Below are positions 43,827-64,000 of a DNA stretch of 64,000 nucleotides, piece by piece. Each line of letters begins with the position of its first letter. The first letter of the stretch is position 1. The stretch covers positions 463,457 through 527,456 of the forward strand of contig CAWCBP010000001.1 in assembly GCA_963793865.1 (NCBI GenBank). Reading direction: 5' to 3'. A program made the position numbers and the translations under genes. Source of the stretch: an uncultured delta proteobacterium. Lineage in GTDB: Bacteria; Desulfobacterota; WTBG01. The notes beneath the pieces are model-generated. The model made no database searches. It worked only from the letters and a program-made list of their open reading frames with translations, and was not told the origin of the DNA.

Positions 43827-44140
43827 GACAATGCCCCTCCCTGACCTATACACAGCCTAAGCCTCAGCATGGTGCCCGCCGGCCGTGCGCAGTCTCTTTC
43901 ACCGCTTACGATCCAGACATATCCCGAACAATGATGCATAAATATATTTGCAAGCTCTGTGCCAGGCGGCACGCGGCTGCCGGAAGCATAATCCTCGTGC
44001 GCATCAATGATACGCCCCGATAGTATGGCTACCTGGTATATAAAAGTGCAATGAATGAAAAAAATGAGTATACAACCGTGAGCCGGTCCGGTGAGACGAT
44101 AAGGATTGAGTGCCCCGGGGAGAAAAGATTGGCGGGAGGT

Positions 44141-46438: not shown

Positions 46439-46464
46439 TGTAGGGGCGACCGGCCGGTCGCCTT
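46439..46464. repeat. Second (truncated) copy of the REP-like palindrome TGTAGGGGCGACCGGCCGGTCGCC
   Basis: Identical to 41720-41743. The 3' arm is diverged (TTTAATAT). Confidence 0.65.
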
Positions 46465-47615: not shown

Positions 47616-47773
47616 GCTGGTTGGACCGCCGGCGTTGGGCGTGCGCATCCGCGCGCGGGCTGTTTTTTATTGACAATTGCAAGGCGATATAATAATAAAA
47701 AATTATTGGCGCAATGTAAACAATTAAACAAAGCACCCGTAGCGTGCTCCTGAGCGTAAGGAGCGTTTTATTT

Positions 47774-48646: not shown

Positions 48647-48700
48647 GCACGTCTGCGGGAGCGGAGAGGCGTGAGGTATCATGGCAATTCGTTGAAATAC

Positions 48701-48777
48701 GGCGGTGTAGCTCAGGTGGTTAGAGCATGCGGCTCATATCCGCAGTGTCCGGGGTTCAAGTCCCTGCACCGCCACCA
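48701..48777 (+). tRNA. tRNA-Met (anticodon CAT); could alternatively be tRNA-Ile2 (lysidine-modified CAT)
   Basis: Cloverleaf with 7-bp acceptor stem GGCGGTG/CACCGCC, D-arm TAGCTCAGGTGGTTAGAGC, anticodon loop CTCATAT, T-arm GGGGTTCAAGTCCCT and 3' CCA. 77 nt. Confidence 0.85.
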
Positions 48778-48902
48778 CTTTTTTCTGCTGAGCCACATGA
48801 GGGTAGGGGGGGCTGTTTTGCTTATGCGAAACGGCCTTTTTCGTCTCACCCGGGTGCGTGATCCGCGGCGGTATGCAGCTGCAGCAAAAAAGTGAAAAAA
48901 GC

Positions 48903-48933
48903 TTGACAGCCGCGGAACAAAAATATTATAGAT
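48903..48933 (+). promoter_or_regulatory. Sigma-70-like promoter (TTGACA, 17-nt spacer, TTATAG/TATTAT) upstream of the redox gene cluster
   Basis: Perfect -35 hexamer at 48903-48908 and an AT-rich -10. About 100 nt upstream of the first ferredoxin gene. Confidence 0.4.
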
Positions 48934-49033
48934 ACCATCTTAGTTTTTTTTTGCGCCCGGGAGCGGGCGCATAACCGGATTGCAGTGCCGAAACCTGATG
49001 AAAAGCAGGCACGGCGCTTAAAGGAGACACAGG

Positions 49034-49204
49034 GTGATTCGCATTGACAGGGAAAAGTGTGTTGGGTGCGGCGGGTGCGTGGATCTCTGCCCCCGGACGG
49101 CCATCTGTTTTGTCAAGGACCGCGCATTCGTGGATGTGCAGCTCTGCCTGGAGTGCCGGACATGCGTGAAAGTCTGCCCGGTGAAGGCGCCGTCAGAGGT
49201 GTAG
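49034..49204 (+). CDS. Small 2x[4Fe-4S] ferredoxin (56 aa)
   Basis: GTG start with an AAGGAG RBS. CVGCGGCVDLCP and CLECRTCVKVCP motifs. Too short to be in the ORF track. Confidence 0.65.
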   Translation: MIRIDREKCVGCGGCVDLCPRTAICFVKDRAFVDVQLCLECRTCVKVCPVKAPSEV

Positions 49205-49271
49205 GTTTGCGGTCACGGCGATTATGAACATGGTTCATGGTTAGTGCAGGTAAACTTTTTGCAAAGGAGAT

Positions 49272-49559
49272 GTGATTTTGGAATCGACTGCGGGATTTCA
49301 GAAAAAGATGATCAGCTGCTCGTTGCTTGATCAGGGCCGGGGCATGCCATTTCGGCCGGGAGACGCGCGGGAGTGGACGCCGGAGTGGGACAAGGACAAG
49401 TGCATCCGCTGCGGGCTCTGTTTTGTGTACTGTCCCGACGGCGCGGTGTTCCGCAATCAGGAGGGTTATTTTGAAGCTGATACCGACAAGTGCAAGGGCT
49501 GCGGCATATGCCACCGGGAATGCTGGTTCGGGGCCATCAGCATGTTCAAGGAGGAATGA
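49272..49559 (+). CDS. 2-oxoacid:ferredoxin oxidoreductase delta-subunit-like ferredoxin (PorD-like)
   Basis: N-terminal extension followed by CIRCGLCFVYCPDGAV and CKGCGICHRECWFGAI. About 95 aa. Confidence 0.6.
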   Translation: MILESTAGFQKKMISCSLLDQGRGMPFRPGDAREWTPEWDKDKCIRCGLCFVYCPDGAVFRNQEGYFEADTDKCKGCGICHRECWFGAISMFKEE

Positions 49560-49561
49560 CA

Positions 49562-50287
49562 ATGGATAAGTACAGTCTCTATGTTTCTAATTTCCTGCCT
49601 TGCAAGGAATACTTCAGCCCTGAGCTGAACCAGGCATGCCCGGGCTGCGGGCTGGCGCTGGCCATCCGCCAGACATACAAGGCCCTGGGCATGAGCATTG
49701 AAAAGGGGGCCTGGGCGTCAGCAGAGCATGGAAAGGCCGGCGCTGCCGGTTCCGGGCTCTTTGGAACGGGCGCAACCGATGTCACCTTTTTGACCATTCC
49801 CAAGGCCCGGGGGAAGCTGGTGATCTGCTGCGATAACGAAGCGGGCGGATCTCTCGCCGACCTGCTTGAGAAACCCATGCCCCAGCTCGCCGCGTCACAG
49901 GGTTTCAGCTATGTGGCCACGGCCTGTCCCAGCTATCCCTTTGACCTGTACGACAAGATGAAGCGGGCCTTCAAAAGCACTGCCGACGCCTATGTGCACG
50001 TGCTCTGTCCCTGCCCGCCGGGCTGGAAGTTTGACGCGGATTTCACGGTGAAACTGGGGCGGCTGGCGGTGGAAAGCCGGGCATTCCCCCTGTATGAAGC
50101 GGGCGCGGGCGCGTACGGCCTCACGGTGAAGACGGGGAAGCCCAGGCCGCTTGCCGACTATCTCAAGGCGCAGGGGCGGTTTGAAAAGCTGAGCGAGGGG
50201 GAAATGGCCGAGGCGCAGGCATCGGTTGACCGTGCGTATAAACATCTGGAAGGCATGATACAGCAGTATCTCGACGCGGTTGCGTAA
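49562..50287 (+). CDS. 2-oxoacid:ferredoxin oxidoreductase beta-subunit-like (TPP-binding, PorB-like), divergent
   Basis: N-terminal ACPGCG and C-terminal LCPCPPGWK....RLAVESRAFPLYE match PorB. The canonical GDG TPP motif is degenerate (GTGATD...DNEAGGS). No alpha or gamma subunit nearby. Confidence 0.5.
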   Translation: MDKYSLYVSNFLPCKEYFSPELNQACPGCGLALAIRQTYKALGMSIEKGAWASAEHGKAGAAGSGLFGTGATDVTFLTIPKARGKLVICCDNEAGGSLADLLEKPMPQLAASQGFSYVATACPSYPFDLYDKMKRAFKSTADAYVHVLCPCPPGWKFDADFTVKLGRLAVESRAFPLYEAGAGAYGLTVKTGKPRPLADYLKAQGRFEKLSEGEMAEAQASVDRAYKHLEGMIQQYLDAVA

Positions 50288-50330
50288 GATGAGTGTCCCG
50301 GCTTCGGGATATCGTTGAAAGGAGCAGGTA

Positions 50331-51080
50331 ATGTCTAAGAGTACGAGGATGAAACCAGGCGCAAAGAAGAGCTCACAAAAAAAGGCTTCGTCTCCTGCGA
50401 CTGCTCAAGCGCCCCAGGCTGCGGCCCCGGGCTCATGGGCGGGCAGCAGCAAGGCCATGTTTGAGCTCATGATCAAGGAGGTGCCGGAATCGCTGCAGGA
50501 TGTGTTCCGGGTGAAACTGATGGATATACTCGGGCAGAAGGCGAAGGGCGGTGCCTACCAGGAAGCCCAGGTTGTGGAGATCGTCAATGAAATCGTGCCC
50601 GAGCCGTTCAAGTCCAACATCCTCAAGGGTTTCGCCACCATGGGGGGTGTTGACATAAGCCTGGTTGAAGGCATCGTGGCTTCATATCCCGGCGGCCAGG
50701 AATCCGTCCCCGCCATACTTCACGCCCTGAAGGCCAAGTTCGGCCATGTGCCGGAAGAGGCGCTGCGGGTGGTGAGCCAGAAGAAAAATGTGTTCATGAG
50801 CACCCTCTACCGGCTGGTGACCTCATTCACGGCGTTCCCAACCGATTTGCCCAGGAAATACACGGTGAGCGTCTGTGACGGCACGGGGTGCCACCTCAAG
50901 GGCAGCGCTTCAATGCTGAAAAAGCTTGAGGAGAAAGCGGCCTCGCCGGACGCGGACATTAACTTGGAAAAGGTGAGATGCCTGGGCTGCTGCGACCTTT
51001 CGCCCGCGGTGCTGGTGAACGGTGAAATGTACAGCGGTGATGATGCCCATGCCAAGATTTCAGAAATGTTAGGTGAATGA
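50331..51080 (+). CDS. NuoE/HoxF-N-like [2Fe-2S] thioredoxin-fold electron-transfer subunit with N-terminal extension
   Basis: VSVCDGTGCHLKGS and RCLGCCDLSPAV cysteine pattern. About 100 extra N-terminal residues with a Lys-rich start. Confidence 0.7.
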   Translation: MSKSTRMKPGAKKSSQKKASSPATAQAPQAAAPGSWAGSSKAMFELMIKEVPESLQDVFRVKLMDILGQKAKGGAYQEAQVVEIVNEIVPEPFKSNILKGFATMGGVDISLVEGIVASYPGGQESVPAILHALKAKFGHVPEEALRVVSQKKNVFMSTLYRLVTSFTAFPTDLPRKYTVSVCDGTGCHLKGSASMLKKLEEKAASPDADINLEKVRCLGCCDLSPAVLVNGEMYSGDDAHAKISEMLGE

Positions 51081-51093
51081 TAAAGGGGAGTCT

Positions 51094-52804
51094 ATGAAAC
51101 AGGATAAACCGCTTGACCTGAACGCGATACAAAAGAAGGGGCTCAGCATGCTGGCGCCGGCGCGTGCCCGGATTACCGTCGGCATGGCAACCTGCGGATT
51201 GGCCAAGGGCGCGGGGAAGATTTTTGAAGCCCTGAAGTATGAGATCAAGAAGCAGAAAGCCAAGGCTGACCTGGTGGTGGTGGGGTGCAACGGCCTTTGC
51301 TATGCCGAACCCATTGTTGAAGTGATCTGCCCGGGAAAGCCGCGCATCACCTATGGCCGGGTGAGCGTGGAACGGGTTCCTGACCTGGTGGCCTCGGTGG
51401 CAAAGGGAGGCGTGGTCAAGGATCTGGCCCTGATGAGGATGGACCGGTTAACCGCGGAAGGCGGTGCATCGATCAAATATGCCGGGGCGAAGGTCCCCAA
51501 GGACGCGGCCGCGCTCAAAGAATGCGGGAAGCTTGATTTTTTCAAAAAGCAGATGAAGCTCATCAGCAAAAACGCCGGAACGGTCAGCCCGGAGCAGGTT
51601 GAGGAATACTGCGCGCTGGGCGGCTACCAGGCGCTGCTGAAAGCCGTTACCTCCATGAGCCCGGATGAGGTCATCAGGGAAGTAACCGTGTCCAAGCTCC
51701 GCGGCCGGGGCGGCGCCGGATTCCCGGCGGGCATTAAGCTGCAGGCATGCCGTCAGGCGGCCGGGGATGCCAAGTACATTGTCGCCAACGGCAGCGAAGG
51801 CGATCCCGAAATCGGCATGCACCGGAGCTTTCTGGAATCGGATCCCCACGCGGTCATAGAGGGGATGGCCATCGCCGGCTACGCGGTGGGTGCATCGGAA
51901 GGCTACATTTATTTGAATGACCGGTACCAGGTGGCCCACGAGCGGCTCACCCGGGCCATCGAGGGGGCGGAAGCCCTGGGACTTATCGGGAGCAATATAG
52001 CGGGTTCGGGATTTTCTTTCTCCCTGCGGGTGAAGCGGGGAGGAGGCGCGTACGTGTGCGGCGAGGAAACGGCGCTGCTCAACGCGCTGGAAGGCTCGTT
52101 CGGCGAGCCGAGACCGCGGCCCCCGTATCCCGCGGAGAGCGGGCTTTTCAACAAGCCCACCGTGGTCAACAATCTCGAGACCCTGGCAACCATTCCCGCC
52201 ATTATCGCCGGGGGCGGGGAAGCGGTACGCGGGCATCGGCACGCCGGGCAGCACCGGCACGAAAATCGTGGCCCTGTCCGGGCATGTGGCCAGGAGCTGC
52301 TGGGTGGAGGTCCCGCTGGGCATGGAGATCGGGGAGATCATTGAAACCTTCGGCGGCGGCGCCGCCAACGGAAAGAAGATAAAAGGTTTCCAGGCGGGAG
52401 GCCCGTCAGGCGGCATTCTGCCGGCCAAACTGCTGAAGATCAAGCTTGACTACGATCGCCTGGCCAAGGAAGGAAGCCTGCTGGGTTCGGGCGGGCTGGT
52501 GGTCATGGATGAGGATACTGACCTGCTGGAGATGGCAAAATTTTTCACCGACTTTTTTGCCGACGAGTCCTGTGGAAAGTGCAGCATCTGCAGGGAAGGC
52601 ACCAAGCGGCTCCAGCAGATCATCACTGATGTGATGGAAGGGCAGGGAACAAGCGAGCACATCGCCCTGGTCAAGCGCCTGGCATCAGCACTGTCGGATA
52701 CCGGCGCCTGCGCCCTGGGCAAAACCGCAGCGGTGCCCTTTATATCGGTGCTCAACCATTTCCCGCAGGTGATCGAAGGCAAACTGCTCAGGAAGAAAGC
52801 GTAA
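51094..52804 (+). CDS. NuoF-like NAD(H)-binding FMN/[4Fe-4S] flavoprotein subunit with N-terminal thioredoxin-like domain, carrying an apparent frameshift at about 52225
   Basis: GRGGAGFPAGIKL, then after the frame switch GTKIVALSGHVARSCWVEVPLG and the 4Fe-4S motif ESCGKCSICREG. Confidence 0.8.
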
Positions 52805-52844
52805 GGTCATAAACGGCGTAGCGATACGAGAGAGGATGATATTT

Positions 52845-53783
52845 ATGGTGAGCTTAAAGATAAATGGAAGGAAGATAAAGGCAGCGGAGGGCATGACCAT
52901 CCTTCAGGCGGCGCGGGTCAATGACATTGAGATACCCACGCTGTGTTCGAATGACGCGCTCAAGCCCTATGGCGCCTGCCGCCTCTGCGTGGTGGAGATC
53001 GGGAAAAACGGGAGGGTGACGGTGGACACATCCTGCACCTACCCGGTGAGCGACGGGCTGGAGGTGCAAACCAACACCCCCCGCATCAGGGAAGCGCGCA
53101 AGATGATTCTCGAGCTCCATCTGGCGCGCTGCCCCAACGTGCAGATTGTCCAGGAGCTGGCCGCGGAGTACGGGGTGACCGAAAGCGCCCAGCAGATGGG
53201 AAAGGATAATGAGTACTGCATACTCTGCGGGCTGTGCGTCCGCGCCTGCAACGACGTGGTCAAGGCGGGCGCCATCCAGTTTGCGGGACGCGGCCCGGGC
53301 AAGATGGTGGACTCGCCCTTCAGCAAGACCGCGGATGACTGCATTGCCTGCGGCTCATGCGCCTTTATCTGTCCCACCGGCATCATCAAGAAAAATGACC
53401 TGTTTTCCACCGCGCTCTGCACGCCGGACGGATGCGATCAAACCGGCCCGCAGCGCGAGATCCTGAACTGGAAGGTGGAGCACAAACTGAAGTGCTGCAA
53501 AAAGTGCGGCAATCCCTACGCGCCGGAGCCGCATCTGGAAAAGGTGAAGCGGGAAAAGAATCTGCCCAATGAATTTTTTGACATCTGCCCCTCGTGCCGG
53601 CAGTATCCGGTGGTTGACCCGGACAAGTGCCTGGGCTGCGGCGGCTGCATGGAGAACTGCCCCTGCGGCGCGCTGGAGCTCGAGGACAAGGGCGGTTATG
53701 ATAAAAAGGCGCAGCTCTATCCGCAGAACTGCACCGCCTGCCACAGCTGCGAGCTCATCTGTCCCATGCAGGCCATCAGCTAG
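52845..53783 (+). CDS. NuoG-N-terminal-like [2Fe-2S]/[4Fe-4S] iron-sulfur subunit (ferredoxin-type and His-ligated cluster domains only; no molybdopterin or H-cluster domain)
   Basis: I.INGRKI......TILQAA...IEIPTLC....L.PYGACRLCVVEI, CILCGLCVRAC, CIACGSCAFICP and CLGCGGCMENCP. Confidence 0.7.
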   Translation: MVSLKINGRKIKAAEGMTILQAARVNDIEIPTLCSNDALKPYGACRLCVVEIGKNGRVTVDTSCTYPVSDGLEVQTNTPRIREARKMILELHLARCPNVQIVQELAAEYGVTESAQQMGKDNEYCILCGLCVRACNDVVKAGAIQFAGRGPGKMVDSPFSKTADDCIACGSCAFICPTGIIKKNDLFSTALCTPDGCDQTGPQREILNWKVEHKLKCCKKCGNPYAPEPHLEKVKREKNLPNEFFDICPSCRQYPVVDPDKCLGCGGCMENCPCGALELEDKGGYDKKAQLYPQNCTACHSCELICPMQAIS

Positions 53784-53832
53784 AGAGTTGCCCCAATTCT
53801 GAATGACTATGTAAGCATCCAAGGAGGAAGTA

Positions 53833-55131
53833 ATGACGGTTTACGATCTTGCCATTGTGGGCGCCGGTCCCGGAGGTGTGCATGCTGCCAAGTGGGCGGC
53901 CAAGAAGGGGCTCAAGACGATTCTCATTGAGAAGCGCAAAGACATCTCCAAAATCACCCGTTACTGCAGCGAGCATTTGATACTCGATGAAGGCTATAAC
54001 GGGGATACGGTTTTGGTGGATCCTAAAAAAGGCACCATCACCTCGACGGCGAACGGGTGGGTGGTTGACTATAAAGGCGGTTTGTTCCCCTGCATTGATA
54101 AATGGTACTACTCTCCCAAGGGCAGGGCCATCCACTTCGCCTGGCCTGACCGGCGGCCGTATGCCTACAAGTACGACAAGGGCTTTCTGCTGGGGAGCCT
54201 GCTCGAGGAATGCCTGGCGCTGGGGGTCACCTTCCAAAATGAAACCAGCGGCTATGACGCGGTCGACAGCGCCCAGGGGGTCGAGATCAAGTGCGTGAGC
54301 AGGGGAAAGAAGGAGAAGGTGAAGGCGAAAAAGCTCATCATCGCCGACGGGTGCAACACCCGCCTGGGGCAGGCAATGGGTTTCAACGCCAGCCGCGGTT
54401 ACATGGGCTTTGCCCTGTGCATGGCCAGCTACATGTCCGGCGTGAAGAAATACAACCCTGAAGAATGGGTGCTCTGGTACGGCAGGTGCTACGGCTCAAA
54501 TCTCGCCCCCATCATCGGCACCGGGCCGGCCGGCCATTTTGAGGACTGGGCGGATGTGATCAACCTCGGCAGCCCCCGGGACCTGCCGGTGGAGGCATTT
54601 GGCCGGTTCACCAAAAACAGTCCCATAGCCGACCGGTTTGCAAACGCCAAGGTTGAAGAGCGGTACTGCTGTTCGGTCAAGGCCTTTACCCCCATTGCCC
54701 GTCCCTATAAAAGTAATACTATAATTATAGGAGATTCTGCCGCGTTTGTTGAAGTGCAGGGTCAGGGGGCTCTGAGCTGCGGTTATAAGGCCGCGGAGGC
54801 GGTTGCCAGGGAACTCAAGGGTGAAAAGGGGTTCGAGGAATACGCCGACTGGTGGCTTAAATCGTTTGAGTTCAATGACAAGGGGATGATGCAGGTGCAG
54901 CAGGGATATGCCTTTGTGCCCACCTATACCGATGACGAGCTTGACTACCTTTTCGGCCTGTGTGAGGACGTGCTCCTGGACGGGAGCTTCAGCCAGTACA
55001 AGTCATCCCGGATGATATGGGACGCAATCCTGCGCGACCCGAAGAAAATTGAGCGGGAACACCCCGCCACCTATGCAAAAATCAAGAGCGTCCGCAGCAG
55101 CACCCTTGAAAGCAGCCTCAAGGACGGCTAA
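53833..55131 (+). CDS. FAD-dependent oxidoreductase, geranylgeranyl-reductase-like fold
   Basis: YDLAIVGAGPGGVHAAKWAAKKGLKTILIEKR dinucleotide-binding motif. About 430 aa. AAGGAGGAAG RBS. Confidence 0.65.
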   Translation: MTVYDLAIVGAGPGGVHAAKWAAKKGLKTILIEKRKDISKITRYCSEHLILDEGYNGDTVLVDPKKGTITSTANGWVVDYKGGLFPCIDKWYYSPKGRAIHFAWPDRRPYAYKYDKGFLLGSLLEECLALGVTFQNETSGYDAVDSAQGVEIKCVSRGKKEKVKAKKLIIADGCNTRLGQAMGFNASRGYMGFALCMASYMSGVKKYNPEEWVLWYGRCYGSNLAPIIGTGPAGHFEDWADVINLGSPRDLPVEAFGRFTKNSPIADRFANAKVEERYCCSVKAFTPIARPYKSNTIIIGDSAAFVEVQGQGALSCGYKAAEAVARELKGEKGFEEYADWWLKSFEFNDKGMMQVQQGYAFVPTYTDDELDYLFGLCEDVLLDGSFSQYKSSRMIWDAILRDPKKIEREHPATYAKIKSVRSSTLESSLKDG

Positions 55132-55154
55132 GACGCGGGCGTTTGCTGAATCAA

Positions 55155-55190
55155 ACAAAAGCCGGGGATTTGCTTCCCCGGCTTTTGTTC
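55155..55190. terminator. Bidirectional rho-independent terminator (AAAAGCCGGGGA-loop-TCCCCGGCTTTT) between convergent genes
   Basis: A 12-bp stem flanked by an A-run and a T-run, between the FAD oxidoreductase (+) and the outer-membrane protein gene (-). Confidence 0.7.
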
Positions 55191-55206
55191 TTTCTTATGC
55201 CGTCCT

Positions 55207-56388
55207 CTAGAAGCGGTACATCACGGTGGGGGCGATGGCGAAAAGACCGGAAAAATTTGATCCCATGTCCAGCACCAGCTGAAATGACGGCGACAGTTCG
55301 ATGTTGGTTCCAATGTGCGTGCTCCACGGTTTCGAGGTCTTCTCCCGCACCCTGAACTTGACCGTACCCAAAACCGGAACGCGGGGGTCCCCCTTTATGG
55401 TGTTGGTGGTATCCCAGTAGGTTTCCCCCAGCCAGAGGTTGAGCTTACAGTCAGCCGCCTGCGTTCTCCAGCCGAGGCGGACGGAGTTCAGCATCGCCTT
55501 CACATCAGGGCTCAGGCTGTTGCCCAGGGGAATATTTCCCTGCAGCGCGCTGATGGTGTAATTCCAATCGTATGAGGCAAAGAATTTTTTATATCCCCCG
55601 ACGAGGGTGTAACCCACGCCGTAGGTGACGCCGGTCAGGTCAATGTGTATGTCAAGATCCCGGGGGTGTTTGCCAAACCGCTTGCGCAGGCGATCGTAGG
55701 GGGCAAGGCCTACTGAAGCATCGGCATCCTCGCGGGTGTACCCGAACAGCCCATAGACGTTCAAAAAGGGGAACAGCCAGGCGTCAAGGCGCAGCGCCCA
55801 GTTCAGCTCCCTGCTCTTCACCTTGATGTCGGTCAGCCCGTCCACGGCAATGGCCCGGCCCTTGATGGAAACCTGCGCGTCGCTCACGCTGATGTGCCGC
55901 CTGCCGTGATAGAAACTCGGCATTACTCCGAAGGCAAGGGGAAGGGTATGCCCCTTTGCTTCAGCCTCCTCTCCTAAAATCGGTAAAATCGTTTGCCATT
56001 TATGTGACGGGTTTGACCCCCCGGTGCCGGCGTCGTCAGCGGCAGCATCAGGTGCAGCGGCCTGCCGGTGCGCATCACCGTTCTCCGCGTTCTGTGCAAT
56101 CATGCTGCTCAGCCGCAGCTGCAACGGGTCTGAAGTTTCTGTTTCGTCAAAGAGAGGAAGCCGTGAGTGCGGTTTAATAACGCCATTCTCCTGTAATGGC
56201 GTATCCTCGATTATTGCTGCATGATTGGACAGCACCGGTTCATTTTCTGCCGACACGATAAGAGGCCGGATGATAATCATGGATAAAATAAAAATGGCGC
56301 ACCTGCACAGACTGCACAACGTCTCAAAGCGCGCGCCTGAATGAGTCCCGGATGTTTTTATCGGAGGGTATGGAAAGCACATTATCAT
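55207..56388 (-). CDS. Putative outer-membrane beta-barrel protein (porin-like)
   Basis: C-terminal ...TVMYRF with a terminal Phe and alternating amphipathic beta-strand patterns. Hydrophobic signal-like segment near the N-terminus. The start is uncertain. Confidence 0.5.
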   Translation of the reverse strand: MIMCFPYPPIKTSGTHSGARFETLCSLCRCAIFILSMIIIRPLIVSAENEPVLSNHAAIIEDTPLQENGVIKPHSRLPLFDETETSDPLQLRLSSMIAQNAENGDAHRQAAAPDAAADDAGTGGSNPSHKWQTILPILGEEAEAKGHTLPLAFGVMPSFYHGRRHISVSDAQVSIKGRAIAVDGLTDIKVKSRELNWALRLDAWLFPFLNVYGLFGYTREDADASVGLAPYDRLRKRFGKHPRDLDIHIDLTGVTYGVGYTLVGGYKKFFASYDWNYTISALQGNIPLGNSLSPDVKAMLNSVRLGWRTQAADCKLNLWLGETYWDTTNTIKGDPRVPVLGTVKFRVREKTSKPWSTHIGTNIELSPSFQLVLDMGSNFSGLFAIAPTVMYRF

Positions 56389-56694
56389 ATCTATGGTCTG
56401 TTGCTATAATCAAACAGAAAGAAGAATTCGATTTACGGAAAGTTGTATTTATCGGTTGACAGAGGCTCAGGCGGATGATAGTTAATTTCGAACCATAGCG
56501 CAGCCCTTATGAATAAAGAAAGCGGATGTAAGATATGGTAGCAGAATCCGAATGGGCAGTCAAATTTTTATGGAACTATTGTAGTGAATGCCGTTGCATT
56601 TGAGGGGCCGGCCCCGGTCCGTTGCGTAACGGCAGCGTGAGGAAATGAAGGCGAGGCCGGACAGGAATACCCACCGTGCGAGAGGAGTTTGGTT

Positions 56695-57462: not shown

Positions 57463-57475
57463 AGGAGGTAGAGAA

Positions 57476-58204
57476 ATGGATGCAGGCGTAAAATGGACAC
57501 CCTATCTGGAAAAAATGAAGGGATTGATTGATTCGCTGCAGCCCACCGCGCTTCAGGAGTGGAAGGGGCAGAATCTTGCGCCCGCCCTGGAGTTTGCCAG
57601 GGGCCAAGCGCGGGGAGGGTTCAGCGCATACCGCGCTGACAAGCTGGAAAAAATAGGCATCGGCTCATTTGTCCATGCCGGCAACAGGCACTTTGCCTTC
57701 TGCAGCATCATGCCCGGGGAAGCCTATGACCTGCCCCTGTTTCTCTCGCGTCTCGATGAGGGGCCGGAGGAGGTCATTTTCCTGGTTGATATCATCCCCG
57801 CGGTGGACAGCCTGGTGGATGAGGAATACCGCAAGAAGTATATCGAGTCGGTGCAGCCCCTCTGGGACCGGTTTGCCGCCCTGCCCGGCATCTGTCCCGA
57901 GGAAAGCGATGTCATCCGCTCACTCGCCTCCATCATTTACACCGCGGCCCGGGTTCCCATCGAGAAGGAGGGGATGCGCCTGGCGGCCCTTGCCCCGCAC
58001 ACTGAATATCTCAAGAGCTACCTCGCGTTTCTTCCCGAGGCGGTGCCGGTTACCGATGAGGCGAAGAAAAAGGAGCTGGCGGCAAAACGCGCGGCGCTGC
58101 GCGCAACCCTGCGTGCCCATTTTTTCAAGGAAATGCTGCCGGGTCCGGCACGGGAAGAACTGGGTGATGGCATGATCGAACTGCTTAATGCTGTCTATTT
58201 TTAG
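57476..58204 (+). CDS. Hypothetical protein, paralogue B of the preceding gene (FDBR-like?)
   Basis: RBS AAAGGAGG. YDLPLFLSRLDE...IFLVDIIPAVD...PLWDRF parallels paralogue A (YDLPIY..EFDE...TMDLMP...PLWRKY). Confidence 0.35.
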   Translation: MDAGVKWTPYLEKMKGLIDSLQPTALQEWKGQNLAPALEFARGQARGGFSAYRADKLEKIGIGSFVHAGNRHFAFCSIMPGEAYDLPLFLSRLDEGPEEVIFLVDIIPAVDSLVDEEYRKKYIESVQPLWDRFAALPGICPEESDVIRSLASIIYTAARVPIEKEGMRLAALAPHTEYLKSYLAFLPEAVPVTDEAKKKELAAKRAALRATLRAHFFKEMLPGPAREELGDGMIELLNAVYF

Positions 58205-58217
58205 GGAGGGATGAGAC

Positions 58218-58628
58218 ATGTCGGTTATGGAAATGCTTGCGGCAGGAGCCGATTTTACCAACGCGGATGAAACGGCGCAGGGGATGATGGCTGATTTCAG
58301 CGACCACAAGGTGGGCATGAAGCTTGACGCGGACGAGTTCACCCAGGTGGTAAAAGACGGCAAGCTCTATCTGGAGCAGGGGATCCGCGAGGACTGCCAC
58401 GTGGTGCTGAAGCTGAAAACGGCCGATCTCTGCAGCGCCATCGACAACACCTTCGATCTCATGGAAATCAAGGACAAGGGGGAGCTGTTGAAGGGCGATA
58501 TGACCGATCCCAACGTTCCCGTCCACCTCATGGCCACCTTTCCCTTTTTCGATGCCATGGTCCGGCTGTATGAATCCGATCCCCGCTTTAAAAAAATGGT
58601 TGATGAGGTTAAGTCTACTTTGGGATGA
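58218..58628 (+). CDS. Small protein, possibly SCP2 sterol-carrier-like lipid-binding fold
   Basis: 136 aa with the pattern ...HVVLKLKTADLCSAIDNTFDLMEIKDKGELLKGDM.... A weak call. Confidence 0.3.
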   Translation: MSVMEMLAAGADFTNADETAQGMMADFSDHKVGMKLDADEFTQVVKDGKLYLEQGIREDCHVVLKLKTADLCSAIDNTFDLMEIKDKGELLKGDMTDPNVPVHLMATFPFFDAMVRLYESDPRFKKMVDEVKSTLG

Positions 58629-58640
58629 GGTGCCCTGCAT

Positions 58641-58847
58641 ATGGTGAAACATCTGGTCGATCTGGAAAAGTGCCGCGGCTGCGGGCAGTGCCTTGAGCAG
58701 TGCGGACTGGAACTGTGGGTTCTGGTGGAAACACCGGACGGAAAGAAAAAAGCCAAGGCAATCGAAGAGGCGGGCATGATCTGCCACTGCTGTCTTTCCT
58801 GCCAGGACGCCTGCCCGGAAAAAGCGATCACCATTCTTGACGAGTAA
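58641..58847 (+). CDS. 2x[4Fe-4S] ferredoxin (68 aa)
   Basis: CRGCGQCLEQC and CHCCLSCQDACP motifs. Confidence 0.65.
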   Translation: MVKHLVDLEKCRGCGQCLEQCGLELWVLVETPDGKKKAKAIEEAGMICHCCLSCQDACPEKAITILDE

Positions 58848-58924
58848 CGGGCCGGTGGCCGCTCATGAGCGTGTGAGCATCGGCGCAACCTGATTGTAAT
58901 GATGAATGATGAGAAGGAGTAAAG

Positions 58925-60273
58925 ATGCCCAGGGAATATGATCTGGTGGTGGTCGGCGCGGGGCCTGCCGGTTTGATGGCCGCCAAAACAGCAGCCGAAC
59001 ACGGGCTGAGCGTGGCCCTGATCGAGCGGAAAGAGCACATTACTGATATCAACCGTGCCTGCAGCATGATGGTGGTGACCCTGACCGGGAAATATCTGGA
59101 GGAGCGGGTACGCTTAAACAGCCGGGACAGGAAGCTTTGCTTCCCGGGATACGGTTTTACCGTCAACTATGACGGCCCCCACCGTGACTTTTACACCTGG
59201 GCCATATACTCCCACCGGGGCAACAAAATTCAGCTCGGCAACTATGAAGAGAACGAGCGCAAGGGCGAGAGCGGCAGGGTGAGCGCGACGTACGATAAGG
59301 GGGCGCTGCTGCGCTGCCTCCTGGAGGAGGCCCGCGCCCTGAAGGTTGATGTCTACAACCCGTATAATGTAATCCGGACCGATCTGCAGGGAGGCAGGGT
59401 GACGGTTTTCACCCGCGAGGGAAGATCCTTCAGGGGCACCTTCGTCATCGCCGCCGACGGTCGCGCCTCCAGAATAGCCCACACCCTGGGCTGCAACCGG
59501 GATCGGAAGTATTTCGGCACTGCGGTGACCCTGGGGTATGAAATGGTGGGGGTAAAGCCGCCGGAAAAATTTGCCCTCTTCCAGATATTTCTCGACGAGA
59601 CACCTTCCAAGCGGGTGTGGATGACGCCGCGGACGACGAAGGACACCTACTTCGTCATGACCACCTCGCTCACCCCCGGCGCAGACCTCGCGGGCGCCTT
59701 TGAGCGGTTTTCGAAAAAGGGTTTTTTCGCGCTCCTGGTTCGAAAAGGCAGAGATAAAGCGCACCCTGACTTCCGCGGGCAACGCGCTCTCACACATAGT
59801 CGATCCCTACAAGGACCAGGTGCTGCTTGTCTCCGACGCGGTGTGGTGCCAGGAGGCGGAGATGACCGGGGCGGTCATCAGCGGCTGGAAGGCGGCCAGC
59901 TGCCGTCAGCTTCGCCCTGGCCGATGGAAAGATATCGCGGGAAGGGGTTTCATCCTACCTCCGCTGGTGGAAAGAAGAGGTGCTGGATAAATACGATTAC
60001 CGGAGCATGATGCGCAATGCCGTGCTTCCCCTCCGGCTCACCCCTGACGAGATTGACTTCGTGCTGAGCCTGGTTAAAAAATCACTGCCCAGCATCCTTG
60101 ATCCTTATGAGACCCCCAAGCTGGTCGGCGGCGCCCTGGCGGAGATAATGCCGGCCGTTGCCAAACAGCGGCCCGCCATTCATCAGAAGCTTGCAGGGAT
60201 GCGCAATGTGCCGCTGGCCGCCGTTTTTGACGGATGCATCAGGGCGGGCTTCCCCATGCAGGCCCGCGGCTAG
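58925..60273 (+). CDS. FAD-dependent oxidoreductase (geranylgeranyl-reductase-like), paralogue of 53833-55131, with two apparent frameshifts (about 59722-59727 and about 59895-59905)
   Basis: YDLVVVGAGPAGLMAAKTAAEHGLSVALIERK. The C-terminal half is recovered in three frames colinear with paralogue 1 (AFERFSKK / SRSWFEKAEIKR...PYKDQVLLVSDA...GWKAA / SYLRWWKEEV...). The first shift is at a T6 run. Confidence 0.7.
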
Positions 60274-60369
60274 CCGCCCCACTGCGGCGATAATCCGGGA
60301 CGAGCAGTCAGCGGGGTGCAGCACAATGCCTGCCACACCCCGCCTTTCATTTTCCCCGCCCTTTCCACA

Positions 60370-62101
60370 ATGATGCGCAATGAGCATGACTCCTCCGCTG
60401 AAAAGAAAAAAATAATTCCGGCACGGCTGCCGGAGGGAATGTACCAGGCATTGGAAGCATGTCGTTGGCAAGGAGTGGATTTCCCGCGACCGGGCGGTTC
60501 TGGAAACCTACAGCAAGCTCTCGCTCGACGCGGAAGGGTTTTTAAAGAAGCACGCCCGGAACGGCTCAAGCATTCCCGCCTGCGTGGTGCTGCCGGGCGG
60601 CACCGATGAAGTGCGGTCCGTGGTGAGGATCGCCCGGCGATACCGGGTTCCCGTCATACCCTTCACCAACGGCCAGATGATGAGCGCCCCCACCTTTCCC
60701 GTTCCCATGCTCTGCATTCACCTGAGCCGGATGAACCGGGTGCTGGCCATCGATGAGCAGCTCATGACGGCCACGCTTGAACCCTATGCGGACTACGGGC
60801 AGCTTCTGGCCGAGGCTGCAAAAGTGGGGCTCTGGAATGGAGGGACGCCGCTGGCAACCACCCTGTGCAAGCTTTCGTCCCAGGTGGCCTTTGCGGGCAT
60901 CTGGCAGACCAGCAAGAAATACGGCCTGCTGGACAGAAACATCGTGGACATAAAGCTGGTGCTGCCCACGGGTGAAATCATGAGCACCGGTTCCCCCGCG
61001 GTTGCGGGCGTTGACCGCGTATGGGAGAGCGGACCGGGCCCTGACCTCACCGGGGTGGTGCGCGCCAGCGCCGGGACCACCGGCATCATTACCGAGGTGA
61101 CCGTCAAGCTGCACACCTGGGTCGGCGGGGAGCTGATGCCGGAACCGCGGGCGGGAAGGCCCTGCATTCCCTGCTATGCCGATGAGCGCTACGACCATGC
61201 CCCCGCGCCGCCCCGGCACCGCATCCACTGGATAGAGTTTCCCGACTGCGAATCCGAAATCAGGGCATACCGGGCCATCGCCCACGCGGGCATCGGCATC
61301 GGGCTCAATGCCTCGGGGGTGTATTCCTCCTATTACTGCTCCCCAACCCAGAAAATGACCGAGGAGCGGGCGACGGGCAATTTTTTCCCCGCCTTCAACC
61401 TCTATGTCATCTGCGCGGGCATCGTATCAGAGGGCCAGCTGGCCTATGAGGAAAAGGTGCTCAGGGAGATAGCGGAAGAGCAGGGCGGCAGGTTTCTCTC
61501 CCGCGACCATAAGCCGGAGGTGCTGCAGGCGCTCGCCCCGTGGAACCTGGACTGCATCAGGAATGTCTGCGGCTATCGCATGAACCGGCGCATGTACGCG
61601 GGCGGGAGCCTTCCCGCGGGTCCGCCCGAGGTGGCCCTCTATCACAGCCGGCTCTGGCGTGAAGTGCTCGAGCGCTTCGGTGAGACGCACGTCACCGACC
61701 GCGGAGGGGCGGAAACGACCCCCTTTGTGTACGGCATAGAGCCGGCGGGGCGCTACACCCTCTCGGAGACGGATATCTACCCGGATCCGATGGACCCTCA
61801 TTCGCTGGAACAATGCGTCGCCATTACCATGTACAGCGCGGTTAAAAATGGCGCCGAGCGGCACTGCGCGCCCTTCGGCTTCGGCGGTCCGGCTGAACCA
61901 TTGGTCACCTTTTTCCCCGAGCAGGGTCCCAATGTCCATCTCCTGCTGAGAAAATTAAGAAAGGTCTTTGACCCACAGGGCATCTGCAGCCCCGGCAGGC
62001 AGGTGCTTACCGAGGAAGAGCTCAAGGAATATCCGGCGGAGGCGGTTGCCAGACTGAATGAACTGCGGAAGTTTTTTAACATGGGCACGATTGAAAGGTA
62101 A
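60370..62101 (+). CDS. FAD-linked oxidase (FAD-binding PCMH/GlcD-type fold), paralogue 1 of 3; N-terminus carries an apparent frameshift at about 60458
   Basis: The N-terminus MMRNEHDSSAEKKKIIPARLPEGMYQALE continues, after a shift, as DVVGKEWISRDRAVLETYS...CVVLPGGTDEVRSVVRIA. This is colinear with paralogue 3 (KAKVIPNRVSREVFQALQDVVGPEWISEDRAV). The start codon is uncertain (60316 or 60370). Confidence 0.6.
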
Positions 62102-62243
62102 ATCCGAAGCACGAAATCCCTGAGATATGGGATATGCGATTTGTGATATGGGCTGAAAAATATTTTTTAATCCCAAATCACAGATCTCACATCACACATC
62201 AGTATGTAGTTTCGGATTTCGATATTCGGATTTCGGATTTGAG
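62100..62243. repeat. MITE-like intergenic element with terminal inverted repeats (AAATCCGAAGCACGAAATCC ... GGATTTCGGATTTCG...)
   Basis: A 20-nt arm identical (as reverse complement) to 5554-5577. Internal partial palindromes. Lies between two paralogous oxidase genes. Confidence 0.5.
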
Positions 62244-62326
62244 TATCGGGGGTTGCCCAGCCTGCTGTTGAATTACGTGTTACGGGACTCACATGACCAA
62301 GCCTGAAAACTGCCTCCTATTAGTGC

Positions 62327-62355
62327 TTGACTAATGAGGGCTGATTCACTATAGA
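62327..62355 (+). promoter_or_regulatory. Sigma-70-like promoter (TTGACT, 17-nt spacer, TATAGA) for FAD oxidase paralogue 2
   Basis: Consensus-like hexamers with 17-nt spacing, about 35 nt upstream of the ATG at 62389. Confidence 0.4.
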
Positions 62356-62388
62356 TACCCAATCGGAATACATCAAGGAGAACCGTAT

Positions 62389-63861
62389 ATGGCGCTGACA
62401 CGGAAACAGCTGGTGGATATTTTTGGCGATAAGCGGGTTATGGACGATGCCGCAACGCTTGAGGCATATTCCCATGATCAGTCCTTTGCGCCGAAACGCA
62501 TGCCTGATTTTGTGGTGTTCCCCGGGACGGTCGAGGAAGTGCAGCGGGTGGTGAGGCTGGCCAATGAGACCCGGACCCCGCTCATTCCCTACAGCTCGGG
62601 ATTGAATTTTCATGGCGCGGCCCTCCCCGACCACGGCGGGATAATCGTCAACCTTTCGCGCATGAACAGGATCATTCAGATCGATGAAGAGAACTGGTCC
62701 GCGGTAATTGAACCGGGGGTTACCTATGCGCAGCTCCAGGCCGCCCTGATGGAAAAGGGATTCCGGGTGATGATTCCATTCGGCGTGCCCCCCGGGCGTT
62801 CCGTGCTTACCAGCTTCCTGGAACGGGATCCGGTCATGGCGGCGCCCAGCTTTGAATCGGGCAATTTTCTCATCATGGACACCGAGATGGTGCTTCCCGA
62901 CGGCGAGCTGTTTAAAACCGGCACATGGTGCGCGGGGGGCGCTCCGGGAGGACCGCTGGGCCCGGTGAGAAACGTCATCTTCCGCCTCTGGACCGGCGCT
63001 CAGGGCACACTCGGCATCATGACCAAGATGAATGTCAAGATTGAGCCTTTTATCAAGGAACGGAAGATGTATTTCTTAAGCTTCAACGCGCTGGCTGATG
63101 CACGTGAGCCTTTGAAAAGGATACAGCGGAGGGAAATCGGCCTGGAGTGCTTTCTCCTGAACCGGTTTAACCTGGCTTCCCTCGTGAGCCATGAGTGGGC
63201 GGTGCCGGATACATTCCCCGCCGCACCCAAACCTTCCGAGAGCTTTGAACGATACCGGGGCATTCTCCCGGCCTGGGTGCTGGCACTCTGTATTATCGGT
63301 GCGCCCAGACATCCCGAGGAAAAGATTGCCTATGAGACAGAGGCATTACAAGAGGTGTGTCACGGTCTTAATGTCGAAGTTAAAGAAACCATTCCCCAGG
63401 TGAGCGGGTTGAGCCGGCTGATGCTCAACGAGATTCTTTATCCCTGGGGTATTCTCAAGAAATTCAATTACCGGGGATCGGTGCACAGCCTGAGCTTTAA
63501 ATGCTCGCTGGGGTCGCTGGCGGAGATGGAAGAGATTGTGCGGAACGAGTGCGAAGCGGCCGGTTACAGCGTATCTGCTTTCGGCGGTTACCTGCTCCCG
63601 CTGGAACGGGGCAGGGCGGTGCACTGTGAGTTTGACCTCCACTGTGACCTGAAGAATGATCCGGAAGCCCGGAACGTTAAGAACCTCTGGACCGGGACCG
63701 CGCAGACACTGATCAACCACGGGGCATATTTTGACCGTCCTTACGGGCCGTGGGCGGAAATGATCTATGGGCGGGCGGGTGAGTATACCACCAAGCTTCG
63801 GCAGATCAAGCAGGAGCTTGATCCCAACGGCATTCTCAACCCCGGAAAATTGTGCTTCTAA
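62389..63861 (+). CDS. FAD-linked oxidase (FAD-binding PCMH/GlcD-type fold), paralogue 2 of 3
   Basis: VVFPGTVEEVQRVVRLANETRTPLIPYSSGLNFHGAALP...LSRMNRIIQIDEENWSAVIEPGVTYAQL (FAD_binding_4-like). The C-terminal ...LDPNGILNPGKL is typical of this superfamily. Confidence 0.7.
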   Translation: MALTRKQLVDIFGDKRVMDDAATLEAYSHDQSFAPKRMPDFVVFPGTVEEVQRVVRLANETRTPLIPYSSGLNFHGAALPDHGGIIVNLSRMNRIIQIDEENWSAVIEPGVTYAQLQAALMEKGFRVMIPFGVPPGRSVLTSFLERDPVMAAPSFESGNFLIMDTEMVLPDGELFKTGTWCAGGAPGGPLGPVRNVIFRLWTGAQGTLGIMTKMNVKIEPFIKERKMYFLSFNALADAREPLKRIQRREIGLECFLLNRFNLASLVSHEWAVPDTFPAAPKPSESFERYRGILPAWVLALCIIGAPRHPEEKIAYETEALQEVCHGLNVEVKETIPQVSGLSRLMLNEILYPWGILKKFNYRGSVHSLSFKCSLGSLAEMEEIVRNECEAAGYSVSAFGGYLLPLERGRAVHCEFDLHCDLKNDPEARNVKNLWTGTAQTLINHGAYFDRPYGPWAEMIYGRAGEYTTKLRQIKQELDPNGILNPGKLCF

Positions 63862-63891
63862 ATTCTGAAGGCTTGTAAGAAAGGATGATCT

Positions 63892-64000
63892 ATGTCAGAG
63901 CCCAAAGCAAAGGTAATCCCCAACAGGGTTTCACGGGAAGTCTTCCAGGCGCTGCAGGATGTGGTGGGCCCCGAGTGGATTTCGGAAGACCGTGCGGTTA
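63892..64000 (+). CDS. FAD-linked oxidase paralogue 3 of 3, 5' fragment (continues beyond the window)
   Basis: MSEPKAKVIPNRVSREVFQALQDVVGPEWISEDRAV parallels the N-termini of paralogues 1 and 2. RBS AAGGATGA. Confidence 0.55.
   Translation, partial: MSEPKAKVIPNRVSREVFQALQDVVGPEWISEDRAV

Follow-up and report, generated by a model that had tools for sequence, protein, structure and literature searches.

Introduction

What reaction would bring ferredoxins, an NADH-linked flavin and iron–sulfur module, several FAD enzymes and relatives of the ferredoxin-dependent bilin reductases (FDBRs) together in one gene cluster of an anaerobic bacterium? The question is raised by the end of a 64,000-nucleotide stretch of DNA (the window) from an uncultured delta proteobacterium (Desulfobacterota, lineage WTBG01; GenBank assembly GCA_963793865.1, contig CAWCBP010000001.1, positions 463,457 to 527,456 of the forward strand), in which positions 48,701 to 64,000 cover the opening 15.3 kb of a redox locus, at least 20 kb long, that is conserved in uncultured Thermodesulfobacteriota, relatives of sulfate reducers. 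An initial annotation, read from the letters alone, had described one redox cluster here and had hinted at a lipophilic or tetrapyrrole-like substrate; the genes that it listed lie at or near where it placed them, and nearly all of its domain calls are upheld by profile and fold searches. Every part of the locus belongs to a known superfamily and the combination matches no described pathway, as had been suspected; the profiles do not resolve the genes into a pyruvate:ferredoxin oxidoreductase (PFOR) plus a glycolate oxidase. We tentatively propose that the locus carries out the ferredoxin- and NADH-driven reduction of carbon–carbon double bonds in an apolar, probably tetrapyrrole-derived compound without oxygen.

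Results

A modular locus with an invariant core

When one genome of each GTDB species was scanned with a profile, 31 loci were returned, and 27 reference proteins were mapped onto all of them; domains were called by Pfam and NCBIfam profile searches of the window proteins and of the intact copies in relatives. The 31 loci all come from metagenome-assembled genomes (MAGs) of uncultured organisms, for nearly all of which the label is Thermodesulfobacteriota or delta proteobacterium; two loci per MAG are found in at least seven cases. The genes of the window are named A to O in their order, with O′, a paralogue of O, standing between M and N.

The order I-J-K-L is kept in 26 independent loci wherever the contig reaches, with 55–97% identity in I, and these four genes are the only invariant core of a unit that is modular. 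The full order from A to O (16 genes) is found in L001, L004 and L010. Gene M stands directly downstream of the core, or divergently upstream of it, in about half of the 26 loci, and genes for flavoproteins of the vanillyl-alcohol oxidase (VAO) type occur in about half of the loci, sometimes immediately upstream of I (L012, L013 and L029). Genes B-C-D-E-F-G precede I also in L023/L035, at 27–45% identity to the window type, and a recurrence of the adjacency at this distance is better explained by a functional link than by recent shared ancestry. In relatives the genes are found together and not dispersed, and the single redox cluster of the initial annotation has held up accordingly.

The FDBR-like pair

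Protein I (56695–57462, + strand, 255 aa) is a true member of the FDBR superfamily: it matches PF05996 at 52.3 bits against a cut-off of 31, and among proteins of solved structure its family profile finds tomato HY2 (6kmd, E 5.7e-13) and PebB (E 1e-8). J (57476–58204, + strand), annotated before as the second member of an FDBR-like pair, falls below that cut-off at 23.6 bits and is a clear paralogue of I (BLAST E 3e-18) that also matches the NCBIfam PebB model (E 2e-8). The AlphaFold2 model of I (pLDDT 88.8, pTM 0.89) has the alpha/beta/alpha sandwich of the FDBRs, and in Foldseek it aligns at TM scores of 0.68–0.75 with red chlorophyll catabolite reductase (RCCR), HY2, PebB, PebA and PcyA and more weakly with PebS and the HemF-type coproporphyrinogen oxidase (CPO). 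Almost all of its neighbors in the PDB at TM >0.5 are tetrapyrrole enzymes.

The residues that are shared, and those that are not, place the pair within this fold and apart from its described members. A catalytic-type Asp on the central sheet (D113, in a DLxP motif) is shared without exception by I, J and the wider clade and aligns with the LDLNP of HY2; we take it to be the counterpart of D105 in PcyA. A second, C-terminal Asp (D232, in a DPGG motif), corresponding to the DP motif of HY2, PebB and PebS, is aligned in I to the EKDPG of HY2 and is missing from the J family. An invariant insertion, GRCLVQRRYxPWPWAR (residues 150–165), is confined to I and absent from J and from all other FDBR-like clades; this Arg/Trp-rich stretch, modelled at a low pLDDT of ∼57, might serve for the docking of a partner or of ferredoxin. 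The likeness to PebA/PebB, other FDBRs and RCCR therefore consists of the fold, sequence homology, the DLxP Asp in both proteins and the DPGG Asp in I, and with PebA/PebB in particular it extends to two adjacent paralogues, an arrangement recalling the pebAB operon; a ferredoxin is encoded alongside. The differences are that I and J form a separate and very narrow lineage, that I has its unique insertion, and that J is without the second Asp.

How narrow the lineage is can be seen from its numbers. The I family comprises 99 close homologues, nearly all of 255 aa and, where named, called ‘hypothetical protein’, and a HMMER search of 1.84 billion representatives found 128 proteins at E<1e-3, with the whole I family falling into one 50%-identity cluster. 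Mean column identity is 70% in the I family and 84% in the K family. J and ∼25 more I/J-like clades make up a small divergent branch, and I is about equidistant from RCCR and the FDBRs. The I/J lineage is a tightly conserved, previously undescribed lineage of the FDBR/RCCR fold; in the literature we found no description of FDBR-like genes in Desulfobacterota, nor of this gene combination.

There is reason to think that these proteins draw on ferredoxin. Natural fusions of an N-terminal 2×[4Fe-4S] ferredoxin to an I/J-like FDBR domain make up two of these clades (P0232 and P0240), the first of which is followed by a second FDBR-like gene (L040:1123-2826), and because of these both the ferredoxin dependence and the paired arrangement of I and J are supported. 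Ferredoxin-dependent reduction by I/J also gains indirect support from ferredoxin gene L, which follows K in every locus. The P0232 fusion is preceded by a gene for a 127-aa hydrophobic, apparently membrane-spanning protein; this small protein was considered as a homologue of K and rejected, its sequence resembling that of a membrane protein.

Paralogues of I beside CPO-like genes

Paralogues of I stand in a second type of locus, seen six times (L024, L025, L026, L032, L034 and L037) and in some cases in MAGs that also have the main cluster. Here two genes for 250-aa proteins are followed by the I paralogue and by a major facilitator superfamily (MFS) transporter (L032:8165-12113, L034:8052-12077, L037:6618-12122). 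In L025 and L032, for which open reading frames (ORFs) were called, the end of the I-paralogue gene and the MFS gene overlap, and a ParA-like ATPase is encoded upstream in the loci with enough upstream sequence (L032 and L037). The 250-aa proteins pass the CPO family PF01218 at 38–40 bits against a cut-off of 31.8, and CPO shares the FDBR fold and binds a tetrapyrrole (PMC13193486). These predicted CPO-like neighbors would support a further tetrapyrrole link and, with the PDB neighbors of I, they strengthen the earlier hint of a tetrapyrrole-like substrate. A profile–profile comparison of the I family with the CPO-like 250-aa proteins was not significant (probability 0.4%), though a DLxP-type motif lines up. 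CPO and FDBR have the same fold and no known sequence link, and their side-by-side occurrence in anaerobes is unexplained.

In one more locus a 647-aa protein with Old Yellow Enzyme and Pyr_redox_2 domains, an architecture of the 2,4-dienoyl-CoA-reductase type, is encoded directly upstream of an I paralogue (L036:7943-9886). Upstream of this gene lie a chemoreceptor gene and a gene for a hybrid kinase/sigma-54 activator, and the contig ends after I.

Carrier, ferredoxin and flavoprotein partners

K (58218–58628, + strand, 136 aa), which follows the pair in the core, has no match to Pfam SCP2 or to any other sequence family in Pfam or NCBIfam, and its annotation as an SCP2-like protein is now carried by structure: the AlphaFold2 model (pLDDT 90) matches SCP2, UbiJ-SCP2 and alkylsulfatase SCP2 domains in Foldseek (probability 1.0, TM 0.5–0.58). 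L (58641–58847, + strand), directly after K in every locus, is a 68-aa 2×[4Fe-4S] ferredoxin with weak matches to the Pfam Fer4 families.

M (58925–60273, + strand) is the second FAD enzyme of the geranylgeranyl reductase (GGR) superfamily in the cluster; it matches PF01494, and scores 72 bits with TIGR02032. Its paralogue G (53833–55131, + strand, 432 aa), the last gene of the first operon, scores 64 bits, and the two are 27% identical over 428 aa (E 8e-32). Both fail the cut-off of this GGR family (158.8 bits) though their alignments cover nearly the whole model, that of G running over positions 1–295 of 297; against the solved GGR 3oz2 the match of each is confined to the Rossmann region.

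The three tandem FAD-linked oxidase genes described before, which run off the window, are of the VAO/PCMH type. O′ (60370–62101, + strand; PF01565 68.8 bits), which has a 5′ frameshift at ∼60455, is 58% identical to the L001 copy of O; N (62389–63861, + strand, 490 aa) scores 89.8 bits; and O (63892–64000, + strand), cut by the window end, is 92% identical by tblastn to residues 1–36 of the L001 protein, which is 570 aa long in relatives and scores 73 bits. All of these (N, O′ and the L001 copy of O) pass the FAD_binding_4 (PF01565) cut-off, and the cluster continues past position 64000. An exact-sequence look-up of the 490-aa N had no match on record, and the region past the window was followed in L004 instead. 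N matches D-lactate dehydrogenase, eugenol oxidase and PCMH in the PDB at E 1e-20 to 1e-26 and GlcD at E 1.5e-27, and N and O are themselves paralogues (E 1e-19), so that the internal paralogy noted earlier is borne out for the G/M, I/J and N/O pairs. The VAO subfamily cannot be assigned because similarity is mostly limited to the FAD domain and the cap domains are divergent. A role in ether-lipid synthesis (alkyl-DHAP synthase, AGPS) was considered for these genes and set aside, AGPS being one of many equally distant matches and in the FAD domain only. Inspection of the N-termini found no signal peptide in I, J, K, L, M, N, O or G, and their chemistry is therefore taken as cytoplasmic.

An NADH- and ferredoxin-linked module

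The first operon holds an electron-transfer module that resembles the bifurcating BfuABC/HydABC enzymes. It opens with A (49034–49204, + strand), a 56-aa 2×[4Fe-4S] ferredoxin matching Pfam Fer4 families, which aligns with the C-terminus of the 622-aa NuoF-like protein of L023/L035 and, judged by that alignment, is the apparent counterpart of the C-terminal ferredoxin domain of HydB/BfuB-type NuoF proteins. B (49272–49559, + strand) is a PorD-like 2×[4Fe-4S] ferredoxin (Pfam Fer4_6, Fer4 and Fer4_21) that is kept in L001, L004, L008, L035 and L042; two ferredoxins in addition to the PorD-like one had been counted in this unit, and there is only one free ferredoxin, A, besides B.

C (49562–50287, + strand) had been read as a divergent PorB-like subunit without PorA or PorG, and is indeed a truncated PorB-like protein that lacks the region for thiamine pyrophosphate (TPP). 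It scores 133 bits with the NCBIfam PorB/VorB model against a cut-off of 405 and covers only the C-terminal half of the profile (positions 160–297 of 300). The N-terminal CxGCG, ICxDNE and PCPxGW motifs, which we assign presumptively from what is generally known of PFOR, are kept, the stretch for the TPP GDG motif is missing, and four Cys (C26, C29, C89 and C151) are invariant in the alignment. There is no ORF for PorA or PorG in the cluster, which thus has neither a full-length TPP-binding beta subunit nor the alpha and gamma subunits of a PorABDG enzyme; C is probably an Fe–S adaptor.

D, E and F supply the NADH-type subunits. D (50331–51080, + strand; PF01257, 90 bits) is a NuoE/HydC-like [2Fe-2S] protein with a long N-terminal extension. 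E (51094–52804, + strand; PF01512, PF10531 and PF10589, with an extra G at ∼52216) is a NuoF/HydB-like FMN/NADH subunit, of which the intact L001 copy matches TIGR01959 at 448 bits; it has an N-terminal extension of ∼165 aa with a weak thioredoxin-like match (E 0.0076). F (52836–53783, + strand) resembles the N-terminus of NuoG and BfuA (PF13510 plus four Fer4 motifs). Its NCBIfam matches to hydrogenase A6, HoxU and NuoG span only their N-termini, and in Pfam and NCBIfam it has no hydrogenase, formate dehydrogenase (Fdh) or Mo catalytic domain, in agreement with the earlier reading of a NuoG-like protein without one. D and E thus match a NuoE-like BfuC and a BfuB with FMN/NADH, SLBB and NADH_4Fe-4S domains, and F a BfuA homologue with [2Fe-2S] and [4Fe-4S] domains.

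The Bfu family, which includes Bam-Bfu and Por-Bfu, has ‘Type 2’ enzymes with extra subunits in place of a BfuA catalytic domain (Schut et al. 2022, PMC9304861). The present module follows the same logic, with the HydB-like C-terminal ferredoxin domain found fused to E in L035 (622 aa). It differs in its third-substrate module, a new one made of the PorD-like protein, the TPP-less PorB-like protein and a GGR-superfamily flavoprotein, in that the window encodes the ferredoxin domain on its own, as A, and in that the N-terminal [2Fe-2S] ligands are not kept in all homologues. Since the BfuB clusters B2–B5 (the C-terminal 2×[4Fe-4S] and N-terminal [2Fe-2S] domains) are absent from non-bifurcating homologues (PMC9304861), and those ligands are kept in only part of the homologues here, bifurcation by A–G is possible and goes no further than that.

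G is likely the catalytic end of an A–G complex. It stands 3′ of F wherever the module occurs, including L035, L042 and L044, and a homologue search with G gave 285 matches. All six genes from B to G (B-C-D-E-F-G) are present in a Myxococcota MAG (L042:4191-11177), and D-E-F-G in a Spirochaetota MAG whose contig begins within D (L044:1-5561), in both cases with no FDBR-like gene. Because it is found without FDBR genes in these two phyla the NADH module can be regarded as an autonomous complex, and the set of PorD-like, PorB-like, NuoE, NuoF, NuoG-N and GGR-like proteins appears to form an NADH-linked flavoprotein complex of its own, as yet undescribed.

In L042 and L044 the module is followed by a conserved protein (253 or 283 aa, 43% identical mutually) with no Pfam match; these were considered as I/J homologues and are not I/J-like. 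In L035, paralogous 210- and 222-aa proteins are encoded between the GGR-like and FDBR-like genes (L035:8371-9688), with twin-arginine-type signal peptides, conserved Cys residues and no family match.

A transport set downstream of the core

What follows the core in relatives bears on the nature of the compound. In 11 loci a BNR/Ycf48-like lipoprotein, an MMPL/RND pump, a DUF1302 protein and a DUF1329 protein are encoded together downstream of I-J-K-L (L003 and ten others). The set lies outside the window, and in L001 and L004 only its first two genes are seen, starting just past the point where the window ends: in L004 the cluster goes on past O with the BNR lipoprotein and then MMPL, and in L001 both come after O with one regulator gene between. 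The same four parts (a DUF1302 outer-membrane protein, a DUF1329 LolA-like periplasmic protein, a Ycf48/BNR-like protein and an RND/MMPL pump) make up AmeABCD, the efflux system for apolar monoterpenes of Castellaniella defragrans (PMC6394551), with the difference that here they are linked to FDBR-like genes and not to terpene-degradation genes. Cofit DUF1302, DUF1329, BNR and RND genes of the same composition are needed by Pseudomonas on fatty esters. An apolar substrate is therefore suggested by the SCP2 fold of K together with the AmeABCD-like set downstream in relatives, and the earlier hint of lipophilicity is strengthened.

Transcription units, neighboring genes and sequence quality

The first operon consists of closely packed + strand ORFs (49034–55131, gaps of 2–67 nt) and is closed, as annotated before, by a bidirectional terminator-like hairpin (55154–55189, both strands) with a 15-bp stem, 8 G-C pairs, an A-run on one flank and a T-run on the other. 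A second series on the same strand starts at 56695 and goes on to the end of the window, with 12–14 nt separating each of its first four genes from the next. Between the two lies H (55207–56388, − strand), a convergent gene for a secreted protein of 393 aa that has no Pfam or NCBIfam match and ends in MYRF; it is present only in L001, L004, L005 and L010, an accessory of close relatives, and from its sequence is possibly an outer-membrane barrel.

A candidate sigma-70-like promoter for the first operon was read from the sequence (48903–48932, + strand). The −35 hexamer of this earlier prediction, TTGACA at 48903–48908, is perfect, and the −10 candidates, TATTAT with a 15-nt spacer or TATAGA with an 18-nt spacer, are imperfect or oddly spaced; the site is missing from the list of the promoter scan because the scan’s rules on spacing and position exclude it. 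No sigma-54 promoter was found before either operon at 0–1 mismatch in the cluster, and such matches are fewer in the window than expected by chance. The only perfect −24/−12 match in the window (TGGCACAGAGCTTGCA, 43949–43964, − strand) sits between a gene for a GAF-domain sigma-54 activator (41994–43520, + strand) and an epimerase gene (44029–45114, − strand), and is directed at the 3′ end of the activator gene. Among RNA families in Rfam only the tRNA passes threshold in the window. Between the first two VAO-type genes, which are 287 nt apart, an ∼80-nt palindromic hairpin (62123–62201) has a weak match to the ‘mir-988’ microRNA model on both strands, and is probably an intra-operon terminator, attenuator or repeat element.

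Upstream, a tRNA-Met(CAT) (48701–48777, + strand; ARAGORN, and Rfam RF00005 at 64 bits) stands 5′ of the cluster in L001, L004 and L005 as well, and is a conserved neighbor with no functional part in the cluster. It was considered as the boundary of a genomic island and rejected: there is no integrase, the GC content is unchanged, the base composition of the cluster being that of the rest of the window, and the position is kept in relatives. Just 5′ of the tRNA, 47744–48646 (+ strand) encodes a 300-aa protein with a signal peptide and a low-complexity tail rich in Glu, Pro, Gly and Ala, for which no family match was found, and a DUF362 protein is encoded divergently (46464–47648). The window genes at 35–48.6 kb are housekeeping or unrelated and give no clue to a substrate.

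Three genes of the cluster are broken in the window by isolated one-base insertions or deletions. Positions 48518–64000 are 93.8% identical at the nucleotide level to L004, which comes from the long-read MAG ‘uncultured delta proteobacterium MFD02979.bin.2.54’, and comparison with L004 and with the short-read relatives L001, L005 and L010 places indels, several of them in short base runs, at 52216, at 59681–59733 (five, of which the first two compensate), and at 59901, 60395 and 60455. They break the NuoF-like E, the second GGR-like enzyme M and the 5′ end of the first VAO-type gene O′, which are unbroken elsewhere at 575, 448 (in L001 and L004) and ∼560 aa. Since the same genes are intact in relatives, the three frameshifts are probably long-read sequencing errors; real pseudogenization is a lesser possibility, in a comparison that has one assembly only. 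In L008, another long-read MAG, the NuoF-like gene is split at the same place, near residue 381. Other ORF calls in the window may carry similar damage.

Discussion

A possible route for electrons

The gene content, folds and conserved residues would accommodate the following scheme. Ferredoxin L would pass single electrons to I and J, which would reduce conjugated C=C bonds of a tetrapyrrole-like molecule stepwise, as PebA and PebB do, with the apolar ligand shuttled and kept soluble by the SCP2 carrier K. Further double bonds might be reduced by M and G, and the VAO/PCMH-type flavoproteins could dehydrogenate or hydroxylate the same scaffold. The A–G complex would link NADH and ferredoxin to G through the PorD-like and TPP-less PorB-like Fe–S proteins and so feed or balance reducing power; an exergonic NADH-dependent C=C reduction might be coupled in it to the reduction of ferredoxin. 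The AmeABCD-like RND set would carry the apolar compound across the envelope. A stand-alone SCP2-fold protein encoded with flavoenzymes of the PHBH/GGR fold has a parallel in the UbiJ/UbiT-assisted metabolon of the Ubi hydroxylases, from which the cluster differs in having no Ubi or Men biosynthetic genes and in that K is without sequence similarity to Pfam SCP2.

A precedent for FDBR-family genes outside phototrophs is offered by the pre-PcyA clusters of heterotrophs, some of them delta-proteobacterial, in which such genes also stand in conserved clusters with an Fe–S protein (PMC10151467; PMC13446030). In them the FDBR-family genes are accompanied by heme oxygenase, V4R proteins and BBAG globins (Rockwell et al. 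2023, PMC10151467). The partners here are instead an SCP2 carrier, GGR-like and VAO-like flavoproteins, a Bfu-like module and an RND pump.

Several observations weigh against the tentative proposal of tetrapyrrole reduction. An isoprenoid substrate is no less compatible with the GGR-superfamily enzymes, the SCP2 carrier and the Ame-type pump, and the ∼10 loci with Pfam annotation hold no substrate-defining gene. No heme oxygenase, radical-SAM ring opener, phytochrome, globin or V4R protein occurs in these loci, so that, unlike known FDBRs, I and J are linked there to neither a source of biliverdin nor a bilin acceptor, in hosts that are anaerobes. M and the VAO-type genes are missing from some complete loci (M, for example, from L031 and L033). 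In the window E stops at the NADH_4Fe-4S domain, with no fused ferredoxin domain, and its N-terminal [2Fe-2S] Cys, ligands that bifurcation of the Bfu type needs, are not kept in L042 or L044. The occurrence of the NADH module in those two MAGs without FDBR genes also means that its coupling to the core may be loose. Finally, the evidence base consists of uncultured MAGs only.

Alternative explanations

An isoprenoid might be the substrate, with the GGR flavoproteins as main catalysts that saturate a menaquinone side chain, a carotenoid-type polyene, a terpenoid or a phytol-type chain, and with the FDBR-fold proteins recruited to that task. We regard this as possible if doubtful. It would account for the near-complete coverage of TIGR02032 by G and M, for a Cys at position 45/46 just after their Rossmann motif, where archaeal GGRs have a conserved Cys, for the weak match of M to the UbiH/UbiF family, for UbiJ-SCP2, a carrier of prenylated quinone intermediates, among the structural neighbors of K, and for transporter parts that are those of terpene efflux. 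Yet G and M score far under the GGR cut-off and their match to a solved GGR does not extend past the Rossmann region, the GGR-like genes are not part of the invariant core I-J-K-L, I retains the catalytic-type Asp residues of FDBRs and has paralogues that accompany CPO-like genes, and all characterized members of the FDBR/RCCR/CPO fold bind a tetrapyrrole (PMC13193486). Whichever the compound, the cell might make it rather than take it up: the locus would then finish an endogenous apolar pigment, cofactor or lipid that the MMPL, DUF1302 and DUF1329 proteins deliver to the outer membrane, as HpnN does with hopanoids. That RND/MMPL pumps export, that the I and K families are very strongly conserved, that SCP2 carriers act in biosynthetic metabolons (with UbiJ among the fold matches of K) and that no catabolic genes (beta-oxidation, CoA ligases) lie downstream in the annotated loci would all suit such a role. 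It becomes rather unlikely in view of the lack of prenyltransferase, polyketide synthase, radical SAM or tetrapyrrole-synthesis genes in the same loci, of an NADH/ferredoxin energy-coupling module more typical of catabolic or respiratory islands, and of island-like traits of the same sort, namely a paralogous pair of loci in at least seven MAGs, chemoreceptors encoded next to L003 and L036, and an accessory content that varies.

It is also conceivable that there is no single system, operons A–G and I–O being independent and merely adjacent. The terminator and convergent gene H that part the two units, the loci (most of them) that have I-J-K-L without the A–G module, and the occurrence of B–G in a Myxococcota MAG and of D–G in a Spirochaetota MAG apart from any FDBR-like gene speak for this. 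Against it stand the facts that the adjacency recurs in two lineages whose module proteins are only 27–45% identical, that G is paralogous to M, and that both units center on ferredoxin-linked flavoproteins of the C=C-reductase type; independence is accordingly judged unlikely. Ordinary pathways, whether PFOR with glycolate or lactate oxidase or a canonical bilin synthesis (heme oxygenase and FDBR feeding an acceptor of the phytochrome or phycobiliprotein type), are scarcely credible. The resemblance of C and B to PorB and PorD goes no further than a half-length PorB, with PorA and PorG not in the cluster; the match of N to GlcD reaches 96.5 bits against a cut-off of 567.9, with no GlcE or GlcF beside it; and the membership of I in PF05996 comes with no heme oxygenase, BBAG globin, V4R protein or phytochrome in the annotated loci, unlike the pre-PcyA clusters (PMC10151467), and the hosts are anaerobes while heme oxygenase needs O2. 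Reduction of an apolar, probably tetrapyrrole-derived compound thus stays our preferred, if tentative, reading. A more specific version of it, which we consider distinctly improbable as it stands, is that anaerobic soil and sediment Thermodesulfobacteriota hydrogenate apolar tetrapyrroles derived from chlorophyll or heme, using the pigment as an electron sink: a deep-branching FDBR/RCCR lineage would reduce vinyl and bridge or ring double bonds and the isoprenoid tail would be saturated, with electrons from the NADH/ferredoxin-coupled flavoprotein complex.

Significance

FDBRs are known from oxygenic phototrophs and their phages. Since 2023 they have also been recognized in some heterotrophs, usually beside heme oxygenase (PMC10151467). 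An FDBR/RCCR-fold lineage in anaerobes, without an oxygen-dependent ring opener, is a new context for the fold. The early evolution of the FDBRs is a question raised in recent work (PMC13446030), on which the I/J lineage offers a direct experimental handle, with the I paralogues beside CPO-like genes as a concrete test case. The unit of NuoEFG-like, PorD-like, TPP-less PorB-like and flavoprotein subunits, which occurs in three phyla or more, is a candidate for a functional type new to the Bfu family. To our knowledge an SCP2 carrier, GGR- and VAO-like flavoproteins, a Bfu-like module and a terpene-type RND pump have never been reported with the FDBR fold.

If the substrate is a pigment, the locus would bear on what becomes of the residues of chlorophyll, heme and bilins where soils and sediments are anoxic. 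Anaerobic hydrogenation of tetrapyrroles, if true, would provide an enzymatic basis for pigment reductions that are now ascribed to early diagenesis, and would supply the ‘pre-FDBR’ stage that is sought in research on FDBR evolution.

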